64,000 nt of DNA. It comes from an uncultured Thermoleophilaceae bacterium. Its GTDB lineage: Bacteria; Actinomycetota; Thermoleophilia; Solirubrobacterales; Thermoleophilaceae. The stretch covers positions 182,066-246,065 of the forward strand of contig CAWGZM010000007.1 of NCBI GenBank assembly GCA_963827065.1, in the 5' to 3' direction. Position numbers and translations under genes: made by a program. This document shows positions 1,295-22,675 of the stretch, one piece after another; position 1 is the stretch's first letter, and each line of letters opens with the position of its first letter. The notes below the pieces were generated by a model, which was not told where the DNA came from, did not search any database, and was given only the letters and a program-made list of their open reading frames with translations.

Positions 1295-2004
1295 GGGTCT
1301 GCTCGCTCTACCCCGAGCTGATGAACATCTACGCCGATCGCGGCAACATCGCGATTCTGCGCGCGCGCTGCGAGTGGCGCGGCCTCGGCTTCGAGCACGT
1401 GGCGTCCGGCCCGGGCGAGCCGCTGGACCCGGACGTCCATGACCTCTTCTACATGGGTGGCGGCCAGGACCGTGACCAGATCGCGATCGCGCCCGACATG
1501 GCCGAGACCAAGCGGGCGGGCCTGCACGAGGCCGCCGAGCGCGGTGCCGTCGTGCTCGCCGTGTGCGGGGGCTACCAGCTGCTCGGCCACTCCTACGAGC
1601 TCGGCGGCGAGGAGCTGCCTGGCGTCGGCCTCGTCGACCTGAGGACGGTCCGCGAGCCCGGTCCACGGCTGATCGGCAACTGCGCGATCGAGGCCGACCT
1701 CGGCACGGGCCAGCGCGTGATCGCGGGCTTCGAGAACCACGGCGGGCGCACGTACCTCGGAAGCGGCGAGCGCCCGCTCGGGCGGGTGCTCAAGGGCCAC
1801 GGCAACAACGGCCGCGACGGCTTCGAGGGGGTGCACTCGCGCAACGTGATCGGGACCTACCTGCACGGCCCGCTTCTGCCGAAGAACGTCTGGCTCGCGG
1901 ACCGGCTCATCGAGCTGGCGCTAGGCATCGAGCTGGAGCCGCTGGCCGACGACCGGCTCGAGGCCGCCGCACACGGCTCGGCGCGCCGCGCGGCGGGCGT
2001 CTAG
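1282..2004 (+). CDS. gatD: GatD (glutamine amidotransferase subunit of lipid II isoglutaminyl synthase, CobQ/CobB-type GATase)
   Basis: LYPELMNIYADRGNI, nucleophile motif CGGYQLLG, GFENHGGRT and GTYLHGPLLPKN all align with S. aureus GatD as remembered. The start was moved to GTG 1282. The upstream part of ORF 1069-2004 is Arg/Gly-rich and looks non-coding. Confidence 0.8.
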   Translation: MPALRVCSLYPELMNIYADRGNIAILRARCEWRGLGFEHVASGPGEPLDPDVHDLFYMGGGQDRDQIAIAPDMAETKRAGLHEAAERGAVVLAVCGGYQLLGHSYELGGEELPGVGLVDLRTVREPGPRLIGNCAIEADLGTGQRVIAGFENHGGRTYLGSGERPLGRVLKGHGNNGRDGFEGVHSRNVIGTYLHGPLLPKNVWLADRLIELALGIELEPLADDRLEAAAHGSARRAAGV

Positions 2005-3731
2005 GCGAGCCCGGCGACGCGCAGCACCTCGGCCACCGAGGTGATCCCGCGCCTGATCTTCTCGAGCCCGTCCTCGCGCAGCGTGCGCATCCCCTCTGCT
2101 CGGGCGGCGGCGCGCAGCTCGTCGGCTGCGCGCTGCTCGAGGATGAGCCGGCGCAGATGGTCCGTCATCGGCATCACCTCGTAGAGGCCGATGCGGCCCC
2201 GGTAGCCCGTCTGCGCGCAGCGCACGCAGCCGCCGGGCTCGAAGCCGCCGAAGCCGCGCTCGACCGCGAAGCCGTTTCGGACGAGGACCGCCTTCGCGAG
2301 CTTGACCGGCTGCTTGCAGTCGCACAGGCGGCGCACGAGCCGCTGCGCAACCACGCACTCGATGCCGGCGGCGACCAGGAAGGGCTCGATGCCCATATCG
2401 ACCAGGCGAGCGGCCGCGAGCGGGGCGTCATTTGTGTGCAGCGTGGTCAGCACGAGGTGCCCCGTGAGCGCCGACTCGATCGCGAGGGCGGCGGTCTCCG
2501 CGTCACGCACCTCGCCGACCATGATCACGTCCGGGTCGGCGCGCACCAGCGAGCGCAGACCGGAGGCGAAGGTCAGCCCGCCCTTTGGGTGCACCTGCAC
2601 CTGCTTGACCCCATCGAGCTCGTACTCGACCGGGTCCTCCACGGTGATCAGCGTCTTCTCCGGCGAGTTGACCTCGTTCATTGCGGCGTAGAGCGTCGTC
2701 GTCTTGCCGGAGCCGGTCGGCCCCGTCACCAGCACGGCGCCGTGCGTCCCGCGGATCGCGTGCCGGAAGCGCTCTCGCTCCGGCGCGTCCATGCCGAGCC
2801 GGTCGAGCTCGACGACCACCTGCGTCTTGTCGAGGATCCGCATCACGACCGACTCGCCGCGCACGACCGGCAGCGTCGCGACGCGCAGATCCACGTAGTG
2901 GCCGTCCACCGACAGGCCGATGCGGCCGTCCTGTGGGAGGCGCTTCTCGGAGATGTCGAGCTCGGCCATGATCTTGATGCGCGAAACGAGCCCGGACACG
3001 AGGTGCCGCGGCACGGTGGTCGAGTCGAACACCACGCCGTCGACGCGGAAGCGCACGCGCATGTTTGATGCGCGCGGCTCGAAGTGCACGTCCGAGGCGC
3101 CGCGCCGGACGGCGTCGGCGATCACCGAGTGGACGAGCTTGACGACCGGGGCATCGTCGGCCGACTCGCGCAGCTCGATCACCTGGGCCGCGTCGTCCTC
3201 CGTCTCTTCGTGAATCTTCTTGACGGACTCCTCGAGCGTCGACAGCCCGGCGATCAGCGCCTCGATGTCCTCCAGCGACGCGACCGCGCGCCGGACCTCG
3301 TACCCGGTCGCCATCGTGATGTCGTCGAGCGCGAGCAGGTTGGCCGGGTCCGCGGTCGCCACCAGCAGCGCGCCCTCGCCGAGGAACGCGATCGGGACCG
3401 TCCGGTAGCGCTTGGCCTTGGCGGCGTCGATGAGCGCCGCGGCGCCCTTGTCGACGTCGAAGACGTTCAGGTCGACGTAGTGCAGCCCGTTGCGCTCGGC
3501 AAGCGCCTGGGCGAGCTGCTTCGAGTCGACGAGGCCGGCATCTATGAGGCTCTGGCCGAGCGCGATGCCGCGTGCCCTCCCCTCCGCCACGACGCGCTCG
3601 ACGACGCCGCGCTCGGCGAACCCCAGCTGCACGATCACGTCGCCGATTCGCCGCATGGCGCCGGTCCGCGTGGTGGGCGGCATGAGTCCGGGCACGGGGA
3701 ACGGCCCCGCCGAGGCAGCCTGGGCTTCCAT
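2001..3731 (-). CDS. GspE/PilB-family type II/IV secretion ATPase with N-terminal T2SSE_N (MshEN) domain
   Basis: Walker A GPTGSGKTTT, the TVEDPVEY Asp box, a Walker B/His box (VIMVGEVRD ... LTGHLVLTTLHTN) and a C-terminal Cys cluster (CDC...CVRC). The N-domain reads RRIGDVIVQLGF...ALGQSLIDAGLVDSKQLAQALAE. The start could be the internal Met at 3683 or 3656. Confidence 0.85.
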   Translation of the reverse strand: MEAQAASAGPFPVPGLMPPTTRTGAMRRIGDVIVQLGFAERGVVERVVAEGRARGIALGQSLIDAGLVDSKQLAQALAERNGLHYVDLNVFDVDKGAAALIDAAKAKRYRTVPIAFLGEGALLVATADPANLLALDDITMATGYEVRRAVASLEDIEALIAGLSTLEESVKKIHEETEDDAAQVIELRESADDAPVVKLVHSVIADAVRRGASDVHFEPRASNMRVRFRVDGVVFDSTTVPRHLVSGLVSRIKIMAELDISEKRLPQDGRIGLSVDGHYVDLRVATLPVVRGESVVMRILDKTQVVVELDRLGMDAPERERFRHAIRGTHGAVLVTGPTGSGKTTTLYAAMNEVNSPEKTLITVEDPVEYELDGVKQVQVHPKGGLTFASGLRSLVRADPDVIMVGEVRDAETAALAIESALTGHLVLTTLHTNDAPLAAARLVDMGIEPFLVAAGIECVVAQRLVRRLCDCKQPVKLAKAVLVRNGFAVERGFGGFEPGGCVRCAQTGYRGRIGLYEVMPMTDHLRRLILEQRAADELRAAARAEGMRTLREDGLEKIRRGITSVAEVLRVAGLA

Positions 3732-3768
3732 ACCTACCGAATATCGGCACGAGCCGGTTGGGGTTGAG

Positions 3769-11628: not shown

Positions 11629-12021
11629 GATCGCTAGTAGTACATCGGTCGTGACGGCCTGTGACGTGCCGTCTCGGAAAGCGGCGTGCTTGCAGGCATA
11701 AACGTCATTCGGCAGGACGACGGTATCGGGGCGTGATGTCCCGGGAGGAGTTCATCTGTCGGCCGCCGCTTCTAGCGCGGCTCCGTTGCGTCGGTGAAGT
11801 GACGCTAGAACGGTTTGGCCACGCGACGGCCGAATGCCGTGTGAGCCGTCCGGTCGTACGCCGCGCGGTCGTCCGCGGCGGCGCACTCGCAGAAGAATTG
11901 CGTATACGCGCACATGCCGGACCGCAAGTCACGCAATTTGCGGGAATCCACGATATGCGCCTTTCGCCATCCTGATGCTTCGAACTTAGCCTGGAAACCG
12001 GCGGTATCTAGGACAGTGGAG

Positions 12022-12954
12022 ATGGCGCAGGTGAGTGAAGGCAGTGGTACGGGCGGCGCGGCGACCGGTCGCCGAAGCCGCATGCCTCTGGTTGCGCTGA
12101 CCCTTGCTATTGCCTTTGCTTTGCTGGTTCCGCCCGCATCTGCGCAGGTAAGCGGTGGCGGGACGGAACCAGGGGTTGACTCGGCAACTCCCGTAGGGGG
12201 CTCAGCACCGGATACAAACCCGGAGCCGCCCGCTCTCGAGGTGCCCACCCCTACGCCTGAACCCTCCGCCACGCAGCCGGCGTCGGGTCCCGACACGCAG
12301 GCCCCGACACTCGAACCCACGCCTGTGCCGACCCAGGAGACAGCTCCCCAGCCGCCCGCCCCGTCACCTGAGACAACCGAGGTCGTCCAACCGCCGACCG
12401 AGCCATCCGCCCCGTCCAGCGGTCCTCAGCTCCCCGCCGCGAGCGAGCCACCGCCCGCCGAGGCCCCCGCGCCGCCGTCAGAGACCGCACCGGATTCGTC
12501 CGTGCTCGAGCACGCTGGTCCGACCGCGGACGCGCCGGCCGAGGCGCTCCCCGAGCCGGTTGTCGACTCCCCACCCCGGGCTGAGAGGGCAGCGGAGGCC
12601 ATACTCCCCGAGGCGCTCAAGCTGATGGACGATCTTGCCGGGGTGAGAGGCACGATGACCATGTTGGCGGCGGAGGATCAGGCCCCGGCTGTTGGCGTGT
12701 CGCCGTCGCGGCCGGATTCCGGCCCGGCCCCCGAAGATTCGTCACCGGTGCCGTCTCCCGACCCATCTCCGCTGACCGGGGGTGCGGCGTCCGGAGCAGC
12801 GGGAGGCGTTCCCTCCGGTGGCGGATCCGCCGCCCTCTATGCGCTCCTGATTACCGTTGCCGCGTTCGCCCGCGGACTCTGGGGCCGGTTGCAATTGGTT
12901 CCCGTTCGCTGGCGTTCAGTGACGATCGTCGCTCTGAACGAACGGCCCGGCTAA
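12022..12954 (+). CDS. Pro/Thr/Glu-rich exported protein with N-terminal signal/TM and C-terminal hydrophobic anchor
   Basis: GGAG precedes the ATG at 12022. The N-terminus RRSRMPLVALTLAIAFALLVPPASAQ is followed by about 200 aa of PxP/PT low complexity. The C-terminal ALYALLITVAAFARGLWGR is a hydrophobic segment plus basic residues. Confidence 0.55.
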   Translation: MAQVSEGSGTGGAATGRRSRMPLVALTLAIAFALLVPPASAQVSGGGTEPGVDSATPVGGSAPDTNPEPPALEVPTPTPEPSATQPASGPDTQAPTLEPTPVPTQETAPQPPAPSPETTEVVQPPTEPSAPSSGPQLPAASEPPPAEAPAPPSETAPDSSVLEHAGPTADAPAEALPEPVVDSPPRAERAAEAILPEALKLMDDLAGVRGTMTMLAAEDQAPAVGVSPSRPDSGPAPEDSSPVPSPDPSPLTGGAASGAAGGVPSGGGSAALYALLITVAAFARGLWGRLQLVPVRWRSVTIVALNERPG

Positions 12955-13139
12955 GGCCTCCAGGCCAGCCAGTCCGAGCCCGGTGCGCAGGCGCCCGGGT
13001 GCACCGTTCGATTCAGGAGTAGGACCGTGAAAAGGAGATATTGCGTGGGGGGCACGAAGTGGCAACCCTCCTGGGCTGCAGCGCTGGCGCCGGTGCCACC
13101 CCCGCCCAGACGACTGCGCCATCGCTCGGGAGGTGCGGC

Positions 13140-13577
13140 GTGAAGCGGGAGAGATGGCTGCCGGCCACGCCCGCCAGCGCCCAGGGTGCGCGTTCCATTG
13201 TGCGTGAGGCGGCCGCCGAGGCCGGTCTCGAGAGCGACTCCGCGTGGGAACTGATGGTGGCCTCGACCGAGGCGGTCACGAACGCCGTGCAGCACGGCAA
13301 GGCCTGGCCAAACGACTGCGTCCTGTTCGCAACCGAGCCGTGCCCGCGTGGTCTGCGAGTGGAGGTCTGCGACCTCGGCACGTTCGACAGCGCGCTCGAG
13401 CCGGCCCCGCTTGAGGCGACGTCTGGCCGCGGCATGCAGATCATCGCGGCGCTCGTCGACCGCCTCGAGGTGAGACACGGAGACGGGCGCACGCTCGTAC
13501 GGTTCGAGAAGCACAGAGACACGGCTCCCCGGCAGGCGACCGCAAGCGCGAGTAGGAGACGCGTGCGAGCAGCGTGA
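13140..13577 (+). CDS. ATP-binding anti-sigma factor / RsbW-SpoIIAB-like serine kinase (HATPase_c_2)
   Basis: ARSIVREAAAEAGL....WELMVASTEAVTNAVQHG (N-box) ... GRGMQIIAALVDRLEV (G-box). GGGAGG precedes the GTG at 13140. Confidence 0.6.
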   Translation: MKRERWLPATPASAQGARSIVREAAAEAGLESDSAWELMVASTEAVTNAVQHGKAWPNDCVLFATEPCPRGLRVEVCDLGTFDSALEPAPLEATSGRGMQIIAALVDRLEVRHGDGRTLVRFEKHRDTAPRQATASASRRRVRAA

Positions 13578-13717
13578 ACCGGTGCCGCAGTTCACCCCGC
13601 GATCCACGAACACGCGGCCGGTCGGAGAGCGTCGAGGAGATTTGAGCACTGGCGCTCATCCCCGCCTCACAAGTCGCTACAAGCCCCCAGACAGCTGCCG
13701 CCCGGCTGACGATGGGC

Positions 13718-16492: not shown

Positions 16493-17047
16493 TTACGGCT
16501 TCGGGCCCTTGGCGTGCACCGGGTGTGGCTTCTTGGTCTTGCTCTTGCCGCCGGCCTTGCTCGCAGTCAGGTCACCGCAGGCGATGATGGTGCCGGCCGG
16601 CAGGCCGTTGGTAGGCGTTGCCACGTGGACGTTCACGGAGTAGCGCTTGGAGGGATCGGCGTTGAACGTCGCCGACTTGCCTCTCGTGTTCGCGTTCCCC
16701 GACTCGTTTGCGGTCAGCGTCCCGTTTGCGCCGACCTGCGTGCGGTAGGTCCAGCCCGGGACCGGCGCGCCCGTCGCCGCGCACGTGCCTTCGTGAACGT
16801 GCCACAGATACATGGTGCCGGCAGCGAGGTTGCGCATGTGCAGGCTCGCCTTGTTGTTCTTCTTGCCGTCGACAAGCCGGGCGCTGCCCCTGACGCTGGC
16901 GAGGCCGGCGGTGGTGGCGGCCGGATTGACGGCAGTCAGCGAAGCCTTGTACGGCTTCGCGGAGTGGCCGCCGCCGGCCGTCGCCGGGCCGGCGACCCCG
17001 ATCGCGAAAATCGAGGCCACGGCGGCCACACTGACACGGCGGATCAT
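16493..17047 (-). CDS. Exported Cu,Zn-superoxide-dismutase-like protein (SodC-like, Zn-loop ligands absent)
   Basis: Signal peptide MIRRVSVAAVASIFAIGVAGPATA. WHVHEGTC (compare GFHxHExGxC), SVNVHV and IIACGDL (compare RxACGVI). There is no His in the region that would form the Zn site. The tail is lysine-rich. Confidence 0.5.
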   Translation of the reverse strand: MIRRVSVAAVASIFAIGVAGPATAGGGHSAKPYKASLTAVNPAATTAGLASVRGSARLVDGKKNNKASLHMRNLAAGTMYLWHVHEGTCAATGAPVPGWTYRTQVGANGTLTANESGNANTRGKSATFNADPSKRYSVNVHVATPTNGLPAGTIIACGDLTASKAGGKSKTKKPHPVHAKGPKP

Positions 17048-17487
17048 TGCAATTCCTCCTCGGGTACGGACAGGCGCGACGTGCGCGAATTCCGATACCT
17101 AAAACGCGCCGCAGCGGTCAGGGTTGCAGAGTTCGCGAAAAGCAGCGGACCACCGAGCCCCAGCGCCACCTCCCTCTCCACGCCCGTGCGCGCGGCATCG
17201 GCTCTGGACCGCGCCACGCTGGTCGTCGAGTGCAACAGCACGCCAGGCGGGGCCGCTGCTGTTGCCTCAAGCGGTGGTGCAGCGTGTCGTCAAGCTGCGG
17301 CTCGTCGGCCGCAACGGACAGAGGCCGGTTTGGAGCTACCGGCCACGTCGTGCCGGCCATGCAGGAGGACGCGGCCGCTACCGTTTCCCGCCTTGTCGGG
17401 CTCGACTGACACCCCGCGTTTGCAATCCGTTTGCACTCCGGCCCGAGAATCGGCCGCAAACCCGCTGCTAGAGCCGGCGAGCGTAAG

Positions 17488-18456
17488 ATGCAGGCACGAT
17501 CGCTAGTAATACCTGGCGTGCCGGGACGAATGATGCTGTCCGCCGCGGCCTGCCTTGCGGCGGCCACGCTCGCGCTCGGCTGCCAGGAGTCCGGGTTCGA
17601 CGAGTCGAAGGAGACCGCGCGGCCCCTCAAGGTCCAGCACATCGACGCCGACCTCGCCGGAACGAAGGTCCCCGGGCAGGCCGAGCGTCCGTTCACGCTG
17701 ACGGCCGATGCGCTCGGTGACTCGCTTGCACTGGGCGTGCGGCCTGTGGGCGCCGCGCTGCCGGGCGGCGAGGTTCCCGCCTACATGCGATCGGAGGCGT
17801 CCGGCATCGAGGTGGTCCCGCCCGTGAGACGCGGCGAGCTGGGCGCCGTAGCGGCCGCCGATCCGGACCTGATCCTCGGCAGCCACGAGCTCCAGGGCCC
17901 GCTCTATCCGTCCCTCAACAAGATCGCTCCGACGGTGATGAGCGACGGCGGCGGCGCGTCGTGGGAGCTGACGGTGCGGCTCCACGGAGAGGCGCTCGGC
18001 CGAACGAACGACGCCGAGCGGCTTCTGATCGACTGGGACCGCCGCGTGGCCGCGCTGCGCTCTCGCCTCGGGGACAACGCGCCGGACACCGAGGTGTCGG
18101 TGGTGCTCGTCGGGCGGAACGGGACCCTGATGGCCGGCGCTGACTCCTTTCCCGGGCGCGTGCTGAGCGACGTCGGGCTCGCACGCCCGCCGTCCCAGGA
18201 CGGGGTGCGCGAGTCCGAGACCGTGTCGCCCGATCAGATTCCCGCGCTCGACGGCCGCGTGGTCCTGCTCTCGGTCGCGCCCGGCGCGCAAGAACGCCTC
18301 TCGGAGCTCGAGTCGAACCCGCTTTGGAAGCGGCTGCGCGCGGTGCGCTCGGGCGCGGTCGAGCGGGTCGACGCGGGCACGTGGTGGTCCGGCGGCGGCA
18401 TCCTGGCCGCGCGGGCCGCACTCGGCGATCTAGAGCGCATCCTCGTCGGCAGCTGA
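17488..18456 (+). CDS. Lipoprotein, periplasmic-binding-protein type 2 (FecB/BtuF-like ABC substrate-binding protein)
   Basis: Lipobox LALGC. DPDLILGS...YPSLNKIAPTV...W...RLHGEALGR..DAERLI, with C-terminal WWSGGGILAARAALGDL, is typical of PF01497-type binding proteins. No permease or ATPase gene is adjacent. Confidence 0.6.
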   Translation: MQARSLVIPGVPGRMMLSAAACLAAATLALGCQESGFDESKETARPLKVQHIDADLAGTKVPGQAERPFTLTADALGDSLALGVRPVGAALPGGEVPAYMRSEASGIEVVPPVRRGELGAVAAADPDLILGSHELQGPLYPSLNKIAPTVMSDGGGASWELTVRLHGEALGRTNDAERLLIDWDRRVAALRSRLGDNAPDTEVSVVLVGRNGTLMAGADSFPGRVLSDVGLARPPSQDGVRESETVSPDQIPALDGRVVLLSVAPGAQERLSELESNPLWKRLRAVRSGAVERVDAGTWWSGGGILAARAALGDLERILVGS

Positions 18457-18503
18457 CCCAGGTCTACTGAACCCCCCTCGATCTGCCGATCAGGAGGGGA
18501 AGG

Positions 18504-19457
18504 ATGACCCTCGAACCCCTCGACGCCCTGTCGCGGCTGGCCGCCCGGCGCTTTGCGAGCTTTGCCGACGCCGCCAACGCCGTGCTCGATCTGCTCGCCG
18601 GAGCCGTGCCCGGCGGCTGTGTCCTGCTCGGCCAGGTGGACTGGGACGCAGGCGAGTGCCGTGTCCTCGACGCCCGCGGCGGCGTGGTGGAGCGCGGCTC
18701 CTCACTGCCCCTGTCCGGCGGCGGCGACGGCTCCGGCCTGATCTGGCCCGAGGCCCTCGCATCGGTCTGCCCCGGCGCGTGGGTCACCGCCCCGCTCGAC
18801 GCCGCCGACGGCAGCGTCGTGGCGCTCCTGATCGCGAGCCCGGGCGCCGAAGTGGCGCCGCCGCGCTACCTCGCCCAGCTGCTGCTCGTGGCGTCGCGCA
18901 TCCTCTCCTACGAGTGGGAGAGCATCTCGACGAGGGCCGAGCTGCACCGGCTCACCGAGGCGGTCCGCGACCGCGAGCACACCGAACCGGTGACGGGGCT
19001 CCCCAACCGCGGAGCCCTGCTCGGAGCGCTCGAGCGCGAGTGGGAGCTGGCCCGGCGCGGCAGCGTCGAGACCTTCGTGGTCGTCGCTCACCTGGATGAG
19101 CGCTCCACAGTCGCCGAGCGGCACGGCCAGGCAGTCGCCGACCTGATCCTGAGGGACGTGGCCGATGTCCTCACCGGAGCGGTCCGGCGCGCCGACCACC
19201 TTGGCCAGATCGCCGACGACGCGCTCGCAATCGCCCTGGTCGGCTGCAAGGGCGAGGAGGGCGCTCGAGCGTTCGTCGCCAGGGTCGCACGGGGGCTCGA
19301 CCGCGTGGCGGCGGCGAGACCCGCCCCGGCCCGGCTGTCATACGGAATTCAAGGGCTGGCTGACACCGGCTCGGCTGCCGAGGCGGTCGAGCTCGCCGAG
19401 GTGTCCGCTCGCGCCGCCAATCCGGTCACGAGCGACTCGATCGAGGAGCTTGCGTGA
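18504..19457 (+). CDS. GAF-like domain + degenerate GGDEF domain protein (active site ADDAL, RxxD I-site retained)
   Basis: TGLPNRGALL...HGQAVADLILRDVADVLTGAVRRADHLGQIADDALAIAL aligns without gaps to GGDEF cores (GHxxGDxxL...RxxDxxxRxGGEEF). The N-terminal half reads as GAF-like (..VTAPLDAADGSVVALLIA..). Confidence 0.7.
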   Translation: MTLEPLDALSRLAARRFASFADAANAVLDLLAGAVPGGCVLLGQVDWDAGECRVLDARGGVVERGSSLPLSGGGDGSGLIWPEALASVCPGAWVTAPLDAADGSVVALLIASPGAEVAPPRYLAQLLLVASRILSYEWESISTRAELHRLTEAVRDREHTEPVTGLPNRGALLGALEREWELARRGSVETFVVVAHLDERSTVAERHGQAVADLILRDVADVLTGAVRRADHLGQIADDALAIALVGCKGEEGARAFVARVARGLDRVAAARPAPARLSYGIQGLADTGSAAEAVELAEVSARAANPVTSDSIEELA

Positions 19458-22400
19458 GCGCGGAGCCCGTTGCAGGCGCCGTGGTCACAGGAGGCCTCTC
19501 CGGCCCAGGCGTCAGCCCGCCGTCGCTGAGCGGCGCCGGGCGCCGCTTTCTGAGCGACATCCTCGTCGAGCTCGGCTTCGTCGACGAGGCCGTGGCCGCC
19601 CAGGCCGTCGACGCGGCGCGCCGGCCCGGCATGACGCCCGAGAAGGTGCTTCTCGAGAAGGGCGCCATCAGCGAGGACCAGCTCGCGCGTGCGCTCGCGG
19701 AGCGCTACGCAATCGCTCACATCGACCTCGACGAGTACGCCGTCGACCCCGCGGCCGCCGGCGTCCTGCGCGAGACCGCCGCCCGCCGCTACCTCTCCGC
19801 CCCAATCGGCTTCACCGACGAGGGCGCCCTGATCGTCGCGATCGCCGACCCGACCGACTCGCTCGGCCTCAGCGACATCGCAGTCATGACGAAGCTGGCC
19901 GTACGGCCGGCCGTCGCCGCCCGGACCCAGATCGCCAGGCTCCTCGACGAGCTCAACTTCATGGACGAGCCCGAGCCCGCGCTCACCCAGGTCGCGGGGA
20001 CGCTCATCGTGCCGCGCGAGGAGGAGAACGGCACGGCGCCGGTCGCACTGGTGGACGAGTCGGCCGGGCGCGCCGAGGAGCTCGAGCGCGAGCTCGCCGC
20101 CCGCCAGAAGGCACACCAGACCGAACTGGCCGAGCTTCGCGACTCGGGCGAGCAGAACGTCGCTGCGGCGCACGTCCAGCGCGAGCGTGCGCTCGCGACC
20201 GCTCAGGCCGAGCTCGAGAAGGCGCTCGCAATCGCCGCCGCCGAGCGCGAGAAGGCGCTCGCCGAGGCCCAGGCAGAGTACGAGCGCACGCTGCGAGCCG
20301 AGCGCGCCGCGCTCGCCAAGGCCGAGCAGCTGGTCGACGCGGAGCGCGCCCGCGCCGCGAAGGCGGTGAAGGAGGCGCGCGAGGCGGAGGCCGCCCAGGC
20401 CGCCAAGCTTCTCGAGAAGACCCTGGAGGACGAGCGGGCGCAGGCGGCGCAGGCCCGGCAGAAGGCCGTCGAGGCGGAGCGCGCGCAGGCTGCCGACGCG
20501 GTGGCCGCCGCCGAGAAGGCGCTCGAGCGCGAGCGCTCCCAGGCCGGCGAGGCCGTCGCCGAGGCGGAGAGGGTGGCCGAGCGGGAACGGGCCAGGACGG
20601 CGGAGGCGCTGGCCGAGGCCGAGCGGACGATGGATTCGAAGCGTGCCCAGGCCGTCGAGAAGGCACTGGCAGCCGAGCGCGCGAAGGTCGGCGAGGCGCT
20701 CGCCGCCGCCGAGAAGGCGCTCGAGCATGAGCGCGCGAAGGCGGCCGAGGAGCAGGCCGCTACGGAGAAGGCTCTCAAGCGTGAGCGCGTCCAGGCAGCG
20801 GAGGCGCTGGCCGGCGCGCAGCGGGCCCTCGCGGCGGAGCGCGCAAAGGCCGTCGAGGCGCTGGCTGCCGCGGAGGAGGCACGTGACGCGGCGGCCGCGA
20901 AGATCGCAGACGCGCTGGCCAACGCCGAGAAGGCACGCGAAGCCGACCGGACGAAGGCCGCCGAGGCCGTCGCCGCCGCCGAGAGGGCACGCGAGGCCGA
21001 CCGGACCAAGGCCGCCGAGGCCGTCGCCGCCGCCGAGAGGGCACGCGAGGCCGACCGCGCGAAGGCCGCCGAGGCCACAGCGGCCGCCGAAAAGGCCCGC
21101 GACGCCGCCGCCACCAAGGCCGCCGCCGCGATCGAGGCCGCCGAGAGGGCACGCGAGGCCGACCGGACCAAGGCCGCGGAGGCCATAGCGGCCGCCGAAA
21201 AGGCCCGCGACGCCGCCGCCACCAAGGCCGCCGCGGCGATCGAGGCCGCCGAGAGGGCACGGGACGCCGACCGCGCGAAGGCCGCCGAGGCCGTCGCTGC
21301 AGCCGAGAAAGCCGCCGACAAGGCACGGGCGAAGGCTGCCGACGCTGTCGCCGCAGCCGAGAACACCGCCGAGCAGGCCCGGGCAAAGGCCGCGGAGGCC
21401 GTCGCCGCGGGCGAGAAGGCACTGGCACGCGAGCGCGCCAAGAGCGCCGAGTCGCTCGCCGCGGAGCGCGCCCAGGCCGCGGAGACGCTTGCCGCCGCCG
21501 AGCAGGCATTGCAGGAGGAGCGCGACAAGGCCGAGGTCGGGGCGGCGGCCGCGGCCGAGGCTCTCGACGCGCTGCGGGCGAAGCTCGAGCAGGACCTCGA
21601 GGCCGAGCGTGCGCGCAGGGCCGAGGAGCTCGACGCCGAGCGCGCCCGCACCGGCAGCGCCATCGACGCCGAGCGCAGCCGTCATCAGAAGGAGCTCGAC
21701 GCGCACCTGGCTCGCTCGGAGGAGGCGGTCGAGGCGGAACGCGCAACCGCAGCTGAGGGGCTCGAGCGCGAGAAGGAGCGCCACGAGGAGCTGCTCGCCG
21801 CGGAGCGCGCCCGCAGCGAGGCGAAGCTGCGTATGCAGGTGGAGCGCCAGGAGAGCGAGCTCGAGGCGATCCATGCCAAGCATGCCGCCGAGCTCGAGGC
21901 CGAGCGCGCGCGGCACGAGCTGCAGGTCGCCGCCGAGCGCACCCAGCACCTCCAGGAGCTCGAGGAGGCGCGTGCAGCCGGCATCGACGCCAGCAAGCTC
22001 GCCGCGATCGAGAAGCAGCATGCCGAGCGGCTCGAGTCCGAGCGGAGGCGCCACAAGGAGGAGGCCGACGCCCTGCGCTCCGAGGTCGACACCCAGCGCG
22101 AGCAGAGCGAGGAGTCATTCGCCGAGGCGGCCGCGCGGCATCGTGAGGAGCTCGAGGAGGAGCGCGCCGCCCACTCCGAGCGGCTCGGCGAGCTGCGCGA
22201 CCAGCTCGCCGCCGAGCAGGCCAGGCGCGAGGAGCTCGAGGCCGGCGCCAGCGGGTCCGAGCAGGATCGCGAGCAGCTCGAGAAGCTCGAGAAGCGGCTC
22301 GGCAAGGTACAGGCGAAGCTCGAGGACGAGCGTGCCGCGAGCGAGGCCGAGATCGACCGCCTGCGCGAGCAGATCGACCTTCTCACCGACGCCGACCGCC

Positions 22401-22675
22401 GTGCCGAGCAGGCCCGCACCGAGTGTGCCCACCTGCGTGACGAGAACGAGCGCCAGGCCGAGATCAACGCCATGACCGAGCGCGACCTGCAGAGCGAGCT
22501 CGCGGCTTCCCGCGATGAGTCCGAGGAGCTGCGCCGCAAGCTCGACGACCTGCAGATCAAGGTGGCCGACGCCACCAAGGCGTTCGAGGCGATGGGCTCA
22601 GCCGAGCGGCGGCTCAGCGAGATCGCCGAGGCGTTCGTTCAGCCAGAGGCCGAGCAGGCCGACGCGGCCGCCTAG
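19454..22675 (+). CDS. T2SSE_N (MshEN)-domain protein fused to about 880 aa of Ala/Glu/Arg-rich coiled coil
   Basis: The GTG start lies in a GTGA overlap with the previous stop. Residues ~30-170 are paralogous to the N-domain of the ATPase at 2001-3731. The remainder is continuous helical low complexity with 18-residue repeats. There is no Walker A motif. Confidence 0.75.
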   Translation: MSAEPVAGAVVTGGLSGPGVSPPSLSGAGRRFLSDILVELGFVDEAVAAQAVDAARRPGMTPEKVLLEKGAISEDQLARALAERYAIAHIDLDEYAVDPAAAGVLRETAARRYLSAPIGFTDEGALIVAIADPTDSLGLSDIAVMTKLAVRPAVAARTQIARLLDELNFMDEPEPALTQVAGTLIVPREEENGTAPVALVDESAGRAEELERELAARQKAHQTELAELRDSGEQNVAAAHVQRERALATAQAELEKALAIAAAEREKALAEAQAEYERTLRAERAALAKAEQLVDAERARAAKAVKEAREAEAAQAAKLLEKTLEDERAQAAQARQKAVEAERAQAADAVAAAEKALERERSQAGEAVAEAERVAERERARTAEALAEAERTMDSKRAQAVEKALAAERAKVGEALAAAEKALEHERAKAAEEQAATEKALKRERVQAAEALAGAQRALAAERAKAVEALAAAEEARDAAAAKIADALANAEKAREADRTKAAEAVAAAERAREADRTKAAEAVAAAERAREADRAKAAEATAAAEKARDAAATKAAAAIEAAERAREADRTKAAEAIAAAEKARDAAATKAAAAIEAAERARDADRAKAAEAVAAAEKAADKARAKAADAVAAAENTAEQARAKAAEAVAAGEKALARERAKSAESLAAERAQAAETLAAAEQALQEERDKAEVGAAAAAEALDALRAKLEQDLEAERARRAEELDAERARTGSAIDAERSRHQKELDAHLARSEEAVEAERATAAEGLEREKERHEELLAAERARSEAKLRMQVERQESELEAIHAKHAAELEAERARHELQVAAERTQHLQELEEARAAGIDASKLAAIEKQHAERLESERRRHKEEADALRSEVDTQREQSEESFAEAAARHREELEEERAAHSERLGELRDQLAAEQARREELEAGASGSEQDREQLEKLEKRLGKVQAKLEDERAASEAEIDRLREQIDLLTDADRRAEQARTECAHLRDENERQAEINAMTERDLQSELAASRDESEELRRKLDDLQIKVADATKAFEAMGSAERRLSEIAEAFVQPEAEQADAAA
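20924..21301 (+). repeat. In-frame tandem repeat, 7 x 54 bp (18 aa), with a 108-bp higher-order unit
   Basis: GCCGAG(A/G)(A/G)GGCACGCGA(A/G)GCCGACCG... recurs at 20924, 20978, 21032, 21140 and 21248. The alternate unit GCCGAAAAGGCCCGCGACGCCGCCGCCACCAAGGCC... recurs at 21086 and 21194, and those two copies differ at one base. The encoded unit is AE(R/K)AREADRTKAAEAVAA. Confidence 0.9.

Follow-up and report, generated by a model that had tools for sequence, protein, structure and literature searches.

What might two overlapping genes do that encode a protein related to diguanylate cyclases but lacking the catalytic residues, followed by a very long helical protein headed by the N-terminal domain of a pilus motor ATPase? 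The question is raised by a 64,000 nt stretch of DNA from an uncultured Thermoleophilaceae bacterium (assembly GCA_963827065.1, contig CAWGZM010000007.1, positions 182,066 to 246,065), hereafter called the window. The first gene encodes a degenerate GGDEF protein that we call dGGDEF, and the second encodes a protein with an MshEN (PilB-N1-type) head that we call the rod protein. The explanation that we tentatively favour, with a confidence somewhat short of even, is that the two proteins form an accessory scaffold of the type IV pilus regulon, acting as a tether or decoy that responds to cyclic di-GMP (c-di-GMP); its weakest links are the pilus target and the actual binding of the nucleotide. 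An earlier note, made from the sequence of this region alone, had given the coordinates of both open reading frames (ORFs) and their TGA/GTG overlap correctly:

18504-19457, plus strand: dGGDEF gene, 317 amino acids (aa), ATG start preceded by AGGAGG; supported by a Pfam match, AlphaFold models, Foldseek and homologues
19442-19447, plus strand: Shine-Dalgarno-like GAGGAG, 7 nt upstream of the GTG of the rod gene
19454-19457, plus strand: GTGA stop/start overlap of the two genes
19454-22675, plus strand: MshEN-headed rod gene, 1,073 aa, GTG start; orthologues in 36 species-representative metagenome-assembled genomes (MAGs)

The protein dGGDEF consists of a GAF-like domain (residues 1-119), a signalling helix (121-158) and a degenerate GGDEF domain (160-293), the last of which was matched by PF00990 with 53 bits (Pfam, cut-off 23.8) and by TIGR00254 with 41.6 (cut-off 37.4). 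In the AlphaFold model of the full-length protein (predicted local distance difference test, pLDDT, 85), an N-terminal alpha/beta domain is followed by a 38-residue helix and a GGDEF fold, and Foldseek matched this model to GGDEF structures with root-mean-square deviations of 2.2-3.3 Å and also to sensor-helix-GGDEF cyclases. Residues 1-153 modelled on their own (pLDDT 89, predicted TM-score 0.85) resemble the GAF domains of PtsP, phytochromes and IclR-type proteins with TM-scores of 0.6-0.7, with PelD also among the matches, and Pfam scores a GAF domain directly in a distant family member. The GAF-like N-half and the GGDEF fold with a degenerate active site (A-site), both proposed from the bare sequence, are thus borne out. 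The following elements of the protein carry the argument about its function:

18906-18923, plus strand: invariant SYEWES in the signalling helix
19185-19196, plus strand: inhibitory site (I-site) RRAD (R228-D231), five residues upstream of the A-site, conserved in all clades
19212-19226, plus strand: degenerate A-site ADDAL (residues 237-241) replacing GG(D/E)EF, never GGDEF in the family
19236-19253, plus strand: invariant, family-specific LVGCKG after the A-site
19281-19283, plus strand: R260, an Arg without variation in the family, at the alignment position where c-di-GMP-bound 3IGN has the Arg of its ERIR helix, which follows the A-site strand

The positions that hold metal and GTP in active cyclases, which we take to be D327, K332, N335 and D344 in PleD numbering, read HLD/ER/AE in dGGDEF, and R260 is presumably the equivalent of PleD R390 or PelD R402. 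Compared with the c-di-GMP-bound GGDEF domain 3IGN, the metal/GTP positions are changed from D to H, from FK to RS and from ND to AE, and the last Asp of the set varies between D and N across the family. We gathered more than 239 homologues, of which nearly all measure about 320-328 aa and stem from soil metagenomes or from Thermoleophilaceae MAGs, and aligned sets of 17 and 43 of them; the 43 belong to the locus type of the window (type 1, see below), and eight family sequences were examined in addition. Within these 43 + 8 sequences the A-site reads ADDAL, SPDGL, ACDAL, DEDAL, SGNSL or GEDLY, never GGDEF, whereas R228, D231 and R260 are invariant in the type-1, type-2 and L169 clades, which share only 37-42% identity with one another. 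Judged by these residues, dGGDEF is catalytically dead as a diguanylate cyclase throughout the family, and the earlier note, which had quoted ADDAL, RRAD and HLD/ER/AE accurately, was right that cyclase activity is very unlikely and that the RxxD motif is kept. A frozen I-site beside a drifting A-site is the pattern of I-site receptors, for which PelD and PopA are the precedents in the literature, and dGGDEF most likely binds c-di-GMP as they do, at a pocket formed by R228, D231 and R260.

The same domain could be understood in another way, as a merely structural or GAF-ligand-sensing partner in a scaffold of the pilus regulon, with RxxD making protein contacts and c-di-GMP left unbound. The pairing and promoter evidence given below applies equally to such a partner, and FimX's own degenerate GGDEF domain reportedly does not bind c-di-GMP. 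However, three pocket residues kept invariant beside a drifting A-site match the I-site receptors PelD and PopA, and we regard a dGGDEF that ignores the nucleotide as unlikely.

One homologue, P0364 (L171:988-2163), has the same N-domain together with an intact GGDEF motif, GTP-binding residues and RxxD, and it stands alone, no MshEN neighbour having been found for it in L171. Because this active protein shares the N-domain and is unpaired, dGGDEF looks derived from an active GAF-cyclase, of which P0364 is a likely model; the form that accompanies the rod gene is the dead one. A motif scan of dGGDEF and the rod protein for RsiG-, PilZ-, EAL- and BldD-type c-di-GMP motifs returned none beyond RxxD; the RsiG-type ExxxSxxRxxxQxxxD had no match in either protein, relaxed residues included.

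Does the rod protein read the nucleotide as well? Its N-terminal part is made up as follows:

19502-19963, plus strand: head, residues ~17-170, a GPGVSPPS motif followed by a PilB-N1D/MshEN domain, conserved family-wide
19547-19705, plus strand: degenerate c-di-GMP motif region, residues 32-84, reading FLSD...A, a 5-residue spacer and TPEK...R

The MshEN model PF05157 matched residues 85-167 with 47.6 bits (Pfam, cut-off 23.1), the PilB model TIGR02538 (NCBIfam) covers residues 33-168 only, and neither PF00437 nor any other ATPase domain was matched by Pfam in the 1,073-aa protein; a search with the ATPase as query hit only the pilB at 2004-3731. The head matches the N-domain of MshE (5HTL) and the PilF GSPII domains with E = 4e-11, as well as PilB N-domains, and aligns gap-free over 155 residues at 38% identity (E = 1e-28) with the N-domain of a PilB encoded in the same window (2001-3731, minus strand). 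It is therefore a paralogue of the PilB N-domain without the ATPase, as had been proposed. A G-(V/L/I)-x-P-P-(S/T) motif precedes MshEN both in the rod proteins (19502-19525, G19 and P23 invariant) and in the PilBs of this lineage (residues 14-21 of the window pilB product).

In the head, the motif for binding c-di-GMP has decayed. In the alignment with MshE, R9-L10-G11 is replaced by F-L-S and Q32 by A in the first half, and R38-L39-G40 by T-P-E and Q61 by R in the second, with the 5-residue spacer between the half-motifs preserved. Both halves fail the relaxed 24-residue c-di-GMP motif (Wang et al. 2016) and retain 6 of the 11 key positions each, compared with 7 and 9 in the window PilB, and the NCBIfam model of the motif, NF053729, gave 25.4 where 38 is the cut-off. 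No close relative has kept either hG element or either terminal Gln in its head; a canonical second half (RMG/RLG) is kept only in the distant family members P0064 and P0098. The PilF domain GSPII-A, with a single degenerate half-motif, does not bind c-di-GMP. Since both half-motifs are degenerate here and GSPII-A sets this precedent, canonical c-di-GMP binding by the head is unlikely, and sensing of the nucleotide most likely falls to the GGDEF I-site alone. In terms of its residues, the head belongs to the MshEN family and lacks the defining feature of its c-di-GMP-binding members, and the rod protein is not a PilB/GspE ATPase.

These findings bear directly on the model of the earlier note, in which the GGDEF I-site and the MshEN head both read c-di-GMP and control a scaffold of the cytoskeletal, polar or nucleoid kind that has nothing to do with pili. 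The MshEN fold is indeed present, the I-site is intact, the second half-motif retains its leucine-rich part, P0064 and P0098 retain the canonical RMG/RLG, and pilus genes do not adjoin the pair. The second half-motif, which the note had called well kept apart from the RLG triad, nevertheless has TPE for RLG, R for Q and 6 of 11 key positions, and the loss of hG elements and Gln in every close relative, the NF053729 score below cut-off and the failure of GSPII-A to bind with one degenerate half all argue against a head that reads c-di-GMP. No specific support was obtained for a nucleoid or general cytoskeletal role, and the promoter motif described below is common to pilus genes. We consider this two-sensor, non-pilus model improbable.

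The two genes are inherited together. When one genome per GTDB species was scanned for the head, 36 ATPase-less loci were obtained, the other 44 kept loci being true PilBs. All 36 come from Thermoleophilaceae, Solirubrobacterales or unclassified Actinomycetota MAGs, and in every one of them (36/36) a hidden Markov model of the family placed dGGDEF, on the same strand, as the next gene upstream. Of 41 loci, 37 share the NTGA overlap; two of the other four lie in frameshifted assemblies, and in the remaining two, from long-read MAGs, the genes apparently read through. The coupling and adjacency described for the window are thus general, and the survey of neighbourhoods across Thermoleophilia that the earlier note had suggested shows the pair in 36 species-level MAGs. 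At type-1 loci, including the window, the order is miaA, a periplasmic binding protein gene, dGGDEF and rod gene, followed by convergent miaB-rny; at type-2 loci dGGDEF and rod gene are followed by convergent ftsI-ftsL-rsmH-mraZ. At least four genomes have both types (L011/L038, L013/L040, L018/L064 and L027/L083), which indicates that the pair was duplicated as a unit into two paralogous loci; the window has only the miaB-rny kind, and a second copy may sit elsewhere in its genome. In the distant pair L169/L170, the head is 42% identical and the rod protein only 263 aa long, and the same arrangement lies in another genomic context. From this distribution the pair appears as a module of two genes that is complete in itself and occurs only in Thermoleophilaceae and related Solirubrobacterales.

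The upstream periplasmic binding protein was rejected as a member of the unit: it is missing at the type-2 and L169 loci, and its gene is separated from that of dGGDEF by the promoter box. At L025:5014-8259 and L040:4918-7086, both in long-read MAGs, dGGDEF and rod protein read as one ORF; we regard these as probable errors rather than natural gene fusions, since a single indel at NTGA is enough to join the frames and L040 has four sister loci in which the genes are separate. The long calls P0321 and P0377 are likewise mis-started or frameshifted. At two further loci with a type-2 rod protein of 356 aa (L002:626-1696 and L003:598-1668), dGGDEF was not detected in the ~600 nt upstream, and the rod protein may work without it in some lineages.

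What connects the pair to pili is a short element in front of it, which also precedes the pilB gene of the window:

18464-18492, plus strand: promoter-like element CTACTGAA-N13-GCCGATCA, its -10-like box (18485-18492) ending 11 nt before the dGGDEF ATG
2001-3731, minus strand: orphan PilB/GspE-family ATPase gene, 576 aa, PF00437 (446 bits) and PF05157, TIGR02538 599 bits, between gatD and hflX
3741-3768, minus strand: promoter-like element CTCAA-N15-GCCGATAT, ending 9 nt before the ATG of the orphan pilB

In 41/41 loci of both types, which comprise 36 distinct sequences, the core [G/A]CCGAT of the box GCCGATNN is invariant 7-14 nt before the dGGDEF start. A CT[ACT]N element lies a further 21 nt upstream, and the region before dGGDEF is otherwise unconserved. 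The -10 box of the window, GCCGATCA, has one mismatch to the sigma-28/WhiG consensus GCCGATAA. In L169 the box marks an independent promoter, because a terminator hairpin precedes it, and at the two loci where dGGDEF was not detected, L002 and L003, an GCCGATAG box stands directly before the rod gene. Among metagenomic orthologues of the orphan pilB, tGCCGATA[TC] is invariant in 30 of 31. Across all 1.45 Mb of fetched sequence, the composite motif stands in front of a start codon and a plausible ORF at 103 sites: 37 dGGDEF genes, 28 PilB-type and 24 PilT-type ATPases, 2 rod genes lacking a dGGDEF partner (L002 and L003) and 12 others, mostly prepilin- or pilin-like, so that 91 of the 103 are dGGDEF, PilB-type, PilT-type or MshEN-rod genes. 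In the relatives, the -35 element before pilT and pilin-like genes reads CTAAGGA, CTTAAGGAAT or CTAAAGG, as in the classical sigma-28 promoter TAAA-N15-GCCGATAA. The box was not found directly upstream of the canonical, operon-internal pilB genes of Solirubrobacterales, where it precedes pilT and pilin-like genes instead; nor was it seen before neighbouring housekeeping genes. Other GCCGATAA-like sites in the window were dismissed as promoters, lying inside coding sequence.

In the pil clusters of the Solirubrobacterales loci L039-L088 (for example L042:7780-7806, L039:655-683 and L043:3680-3705), CTAAGGA or CTTAAGGAAT is followed after ~N15 by GCCGAT[AC][CT], and these sigma-28-like promoters directly precede two classes of PilT-type ATPases and prepilin-like DUF7305 genes.

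In Rubrobacter, the c-di-GMP-controlled sigma factor WhiG acts at TAAA-N15-GCCGATAA promoters and so drives the genes of type IV pili and the dgc/pde genes; WhiG-RsiG-c-di-GMP control is thus known in the sister class, and RsiG occurs in Thermoleophilia. The occurrence of the box suggests a WhiG/FliA-type pilus regulon in Solirubrobacterales, and we infer that the pair operon has a promoter of the sigma-28/WhiG type, common to pilB, pilT and pilin-like genes. The orphan pilB is likely co-regulated with the pair. The absence of a pilus partner that the earlier note had asserted therefore holds for gene adjacency and fails for the promoter box, which the window pilB and the PilT, PilB and pilin-like genes of relatives have in common.

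Several observations weigh against the c-di-GMP-responsive pilus scaffold that we favour. The -35 element of the window, CTACTGAA, is a poor match to TAAA, the window pilB has CTCAA, and the pilB orthologues can be read just as well as sigma-70-like, with TTGACC-N17-GATACC. Shine-Dalgarno-like sequences lie downstream of the box or overlap it, an arrangement not easily squared with transcription that starts only ~5 nt ahead of the ATG, and the loci behind the promoter statistics were chosen for holding pilB or the pair and form a biased sample. The pair is never adjacent to pilus genes, being convergent to miaB-rny (type 1) or ftsI-ftsL-rsmH-mraZ (type 2). Finally, the conservation of RxxD could serve another ligand or a structural contact, the head might bind c-di-GMP non-canonically through a conserved RR before FLSD, and all family members come from uncultured organisms.

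How real, and of what kind, is the long rod that gives the second protein its size? The head is joined to it by a conserved linker, FMDEP...TLIVPPEE, and the remainder comprises the following:

20066-22633, plus strand: proline-free Ala/Glu/Arg/Lys rod, residues 205-1060 (856 residues)
20651-21462, plus strand: tandem repeats, ~15 units of 54 nt (18 aa) each, and super-units of 108 nt (Tandem Repeats Finder)
22385-22636, plus strand: conserved C-terminal heptad module, TDADRRAEQAR...MTERDL...MGSAERRLSEIAEAF

The rod contains 31% A, 19% E, 12% R, 8% L and 6% K, and not one proline among its 856 residues. Its hydrophobic period is 3.67 in residues 205-480, 3.60 in the 18-residue repeats and 3.50 only in residues 940-1060, with a 3.0 repeat harmonic in addition. 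As the period of 3.50 is confined to the last ~120 residues, the tail is predicted to be a heptad coiled coil and the rod outside it is probably not a plain one; the unbroken Ala/Glu/Arg/Lys helix first described agrees with the proline-free composition. The C-terminal module, with the family motif ADxRAExAR...LR-E-ER...TER-L, is kept in type 1 and occurs in a variant form in type 2. An exhaustive HMMER search of 1.84 billion representatives gave 19 matches to it, all apparently fragments of the family; at so few matches the module is family-specific, and the search yielded no link to known scaffolds. Pfam and NCBIfam contained no family matching rod or tail.

The rod proteins range in length from 263 and 356 to 1,130 aa, the type-1 relatives of the window protein measuring 900-1,130 aa and many others 430-600 aa, so that giant size, by which the earlier note had characterized the protein, is not a property of the family. 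This variation is driven by the 18-aa tandem repeats. At 20954-21309 the window has one 108-nt (36-aa) unit more than a 99%-identical contig (L006:8344-8807), a difference that reflects either copy-number polymorphism or assembly.

The long ORF could in principle be an artefact, either a shadow ORF opened by GC-rich repeats or the product of a wrongly assembled repeat array. An antisense ORF of 901 aa runs across the rod gene (19349-22054, minus strand), many rod orthologues in MAGs are frameshifted, and the repeat copy number is unlike that of the 99%-identical contig. The plus-strand frame is nevertheless the coding one, since its GC content at third codon positions is 0.91 compared with 0.83 for the antisense ORF and conserved ends exist only in the plus-strand product; the antisense ORF is a shadow ORF of the GC-rich repeats. 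Moreover, head and C-terminal module are in frame across at least 36 genomes, the start overlap is conserved, and other genomes contain intact orthologues of 927 and 1,130 aa. An artefact of repeat assembly, which the earlier note had named as a possible refutation, is thus largely refuted and hardly credible for the ORF as a whole, doubt being confined to the exact repeat number: the long form is not an artefact, and its exact length is labile. Gene callers have placed similar spurious minus-strand genes in related MAGs, for example at L004:6926-8293.

The shape of the rod invites comparison with division or envelope scaffolds of the DivIVA, Scy or FilP kind, in which case the GAF domain would sense a metabolite, and c-di-GMP and pili would be irrelevant. 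The type-2 copies always adjoin ftsI-ftsL-rsmH-mraZ, the GAF domain is strongly conserved, and the non-heptad periodicity of 3.6-3.67 fits such a role, this type of periodicity reportedly resembling that of some bacterial cytoskeletal coiled coils such as Scy. Yet the pair is convergent to the dcw genes and hence not co-transcribed with them, and type-1 copies adjoin miaB instead; with this orientation, in one paralogue only, we rejected the dcw neighbourhood as a functional clue. A pilus-ATPase docking domain as the head, an I-site invariant despite the dead A-site, and a box common to PilB, PilT and pilin-like genes that was not seen before neighbouring housekeeping genes are also hard to reconcile with a division scaffold, which we therefore rate as rather unlikely.

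The remaining genes of the window are of a housekeeping kind (murT/gatD, hflX, dapF, miaA, miaB, rny, recA, ftsK, rnj, pnp, truB and infB), and within the 64 kb no pilus gene was found besides the orphan pilB. Between miaA and the periplasmic binding protein gene, at 11805-13650 and 16493-17696, lie ORFs of 171, 232, 184 and 192 aa without a Pfam match, which points to an insertion in the window relative to L007 and L008, where these two genes are adjacent.

Which known systems does the pair resemble? The closest working analogue is PilB(N1D)-PilZ-FimX of Xanthomonas and Pseudomonas, in which a c-di-GMP receptor with a degenerate GGDEF domain acts through the MshEN-type N-domain of the pilus ATPase; PilB N1 is the docking surface for PilZ/FimX in Xanthomonas and, by homology with GspE-GspL, for PilM. 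In contrast to that system, the N1 domain of our pair is free of the ATPase and sits on a rod, PilZ adaptor and EAL domain are both absent, c-di-GMP would be bound at the GGDEF I-site instead of at EAL, and the genes form an obligate overlapping pair. In architecture, dGGDEF comes closest to PelD of the Pseudomonas Pel polysaccharide system, a GAF protein with a degenerate GGDEF domain that is an RxxD I-site receptor. Unlike PelD, dGGDEF has no transmembrane segments and starts with a soluble GAF domain, its partner is a PilB-headed rod and not a glycosyltransferase complex, and its neighbours are the periplasmic binding protein gene, miaB and rny and not a pel operon; orthology with PelD was rejected on the missing transmembrane N-terminus and pel genes.

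The head shares with MshE, the PilF GSPII domains and the MshEN of NfrB the fold, the two-helix-pair N-subdomain and the 5-residue spacer, and differs from them in having lost RLG and Q in both halves and in lacking an enzymatic domain, so that it resembles the non-binding GSPII-A. NfrB is said to be under local control of a dedicated GGDEF protein, DgcJ. RsiG-WhiG of Actinomycetota is related through the same -10 box before the pair operon and is a transcriptional switch, not a structural homologue. In Myxococcus (FrzS/AglZ) and Nostoc (HmpF), pilus polarity is reportedly steered by proteins in which a long helical rod bears a small signalling-type domain at its N-terminus; their heads are receiver domains, or there is none, and not MshEN, and the likeness to the rod protein is one of architecture. 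The C-terminal module search returned family members only and gave no sequence relationship to FrzS, AglZ or HmpF. Neither this gene pair nor an MshEN head carried by a rod or coiled coil was found described in a keyword search of 8 million papers, and the statement of the earlier note that no characterised system matches still stands after this search and that with the C-terminal module.

Taken together, these features suggest how the c-di-GMP-responsive pilus scaffold might work. The first gene would supply a soluble PelD-like receptor composed of GAF domain, signalling helix and a dead GGDEF domain with a complete I-site pocket. The second would supply a PilB N1/MshEN docking head, a TLIVPPEE linker, an evolvable helical rod of 100 to 900 residues and a heptad tail. 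Owing to the overlap of their genes, the two proteins would be made in fixed proportion and could form a complex. With the MshEN motif lost, the head would have delegated c-di-GMP input to dGGDEF and kept protein docking of the PilB-N1 type. The pair would be made together with the type IV pilus machinery, because the putative sigma-28/WhiG-type promoter is common to pilB, pilT and pilin-like genes, and the complex, as a tether or decoy responding to c-di-GMP, could then position or gate the PilB motor or its platform. If the promoter is of the WhiG type, module and pili would be expressed together when c-di-GMP is low, and the module could then respond post-translationally to a rise in c-di-GMP. 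A more specific version, to which we give a low probability, is an ATPase-less PilB decoy or tether whose head sits on the PilM/PilC platform or in the PilB N1 ring, with dGGDEF and c-di-GMP switching the docking and the rod setting the distance to the target of the tail. If true, such a decoy or tether would represent a new class of post-translational pilus regulator, layered on the WhiG/RsiG transcriptional control exerted by the same messenger. Second-messenger sensing would in that case have passed to a degenerating cyclase from an MshEN domain that was itself degenerating.

MshEN is regarded as one of only two c-di-GMP receptor modules that are truly widespread, and it has been described fused to ATPase, glycosyltransferase and other domains. 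The rod protein would add a third use of MshEN, as an enzyme-free PilB docking head that has lost the nucleotide motif and is obligately paired with a dead cyclase keeping the receptor pocket. Both N-terminal modules are small and soluble, which makes work with recombinant proteins possible despite the lack of a cultured host. If our explanation is true, the pair would be a pilus accessory factor of a new kind, from a lineage of soil actinobacteria that branches deeply and is abundant and uncultured, would extend the WhiG/c-di-GMP/pilus circuit of Rubrobacter to Thermoleophilia and would provide a clean natural example of receptor function migrating between degenerating signalling domains.

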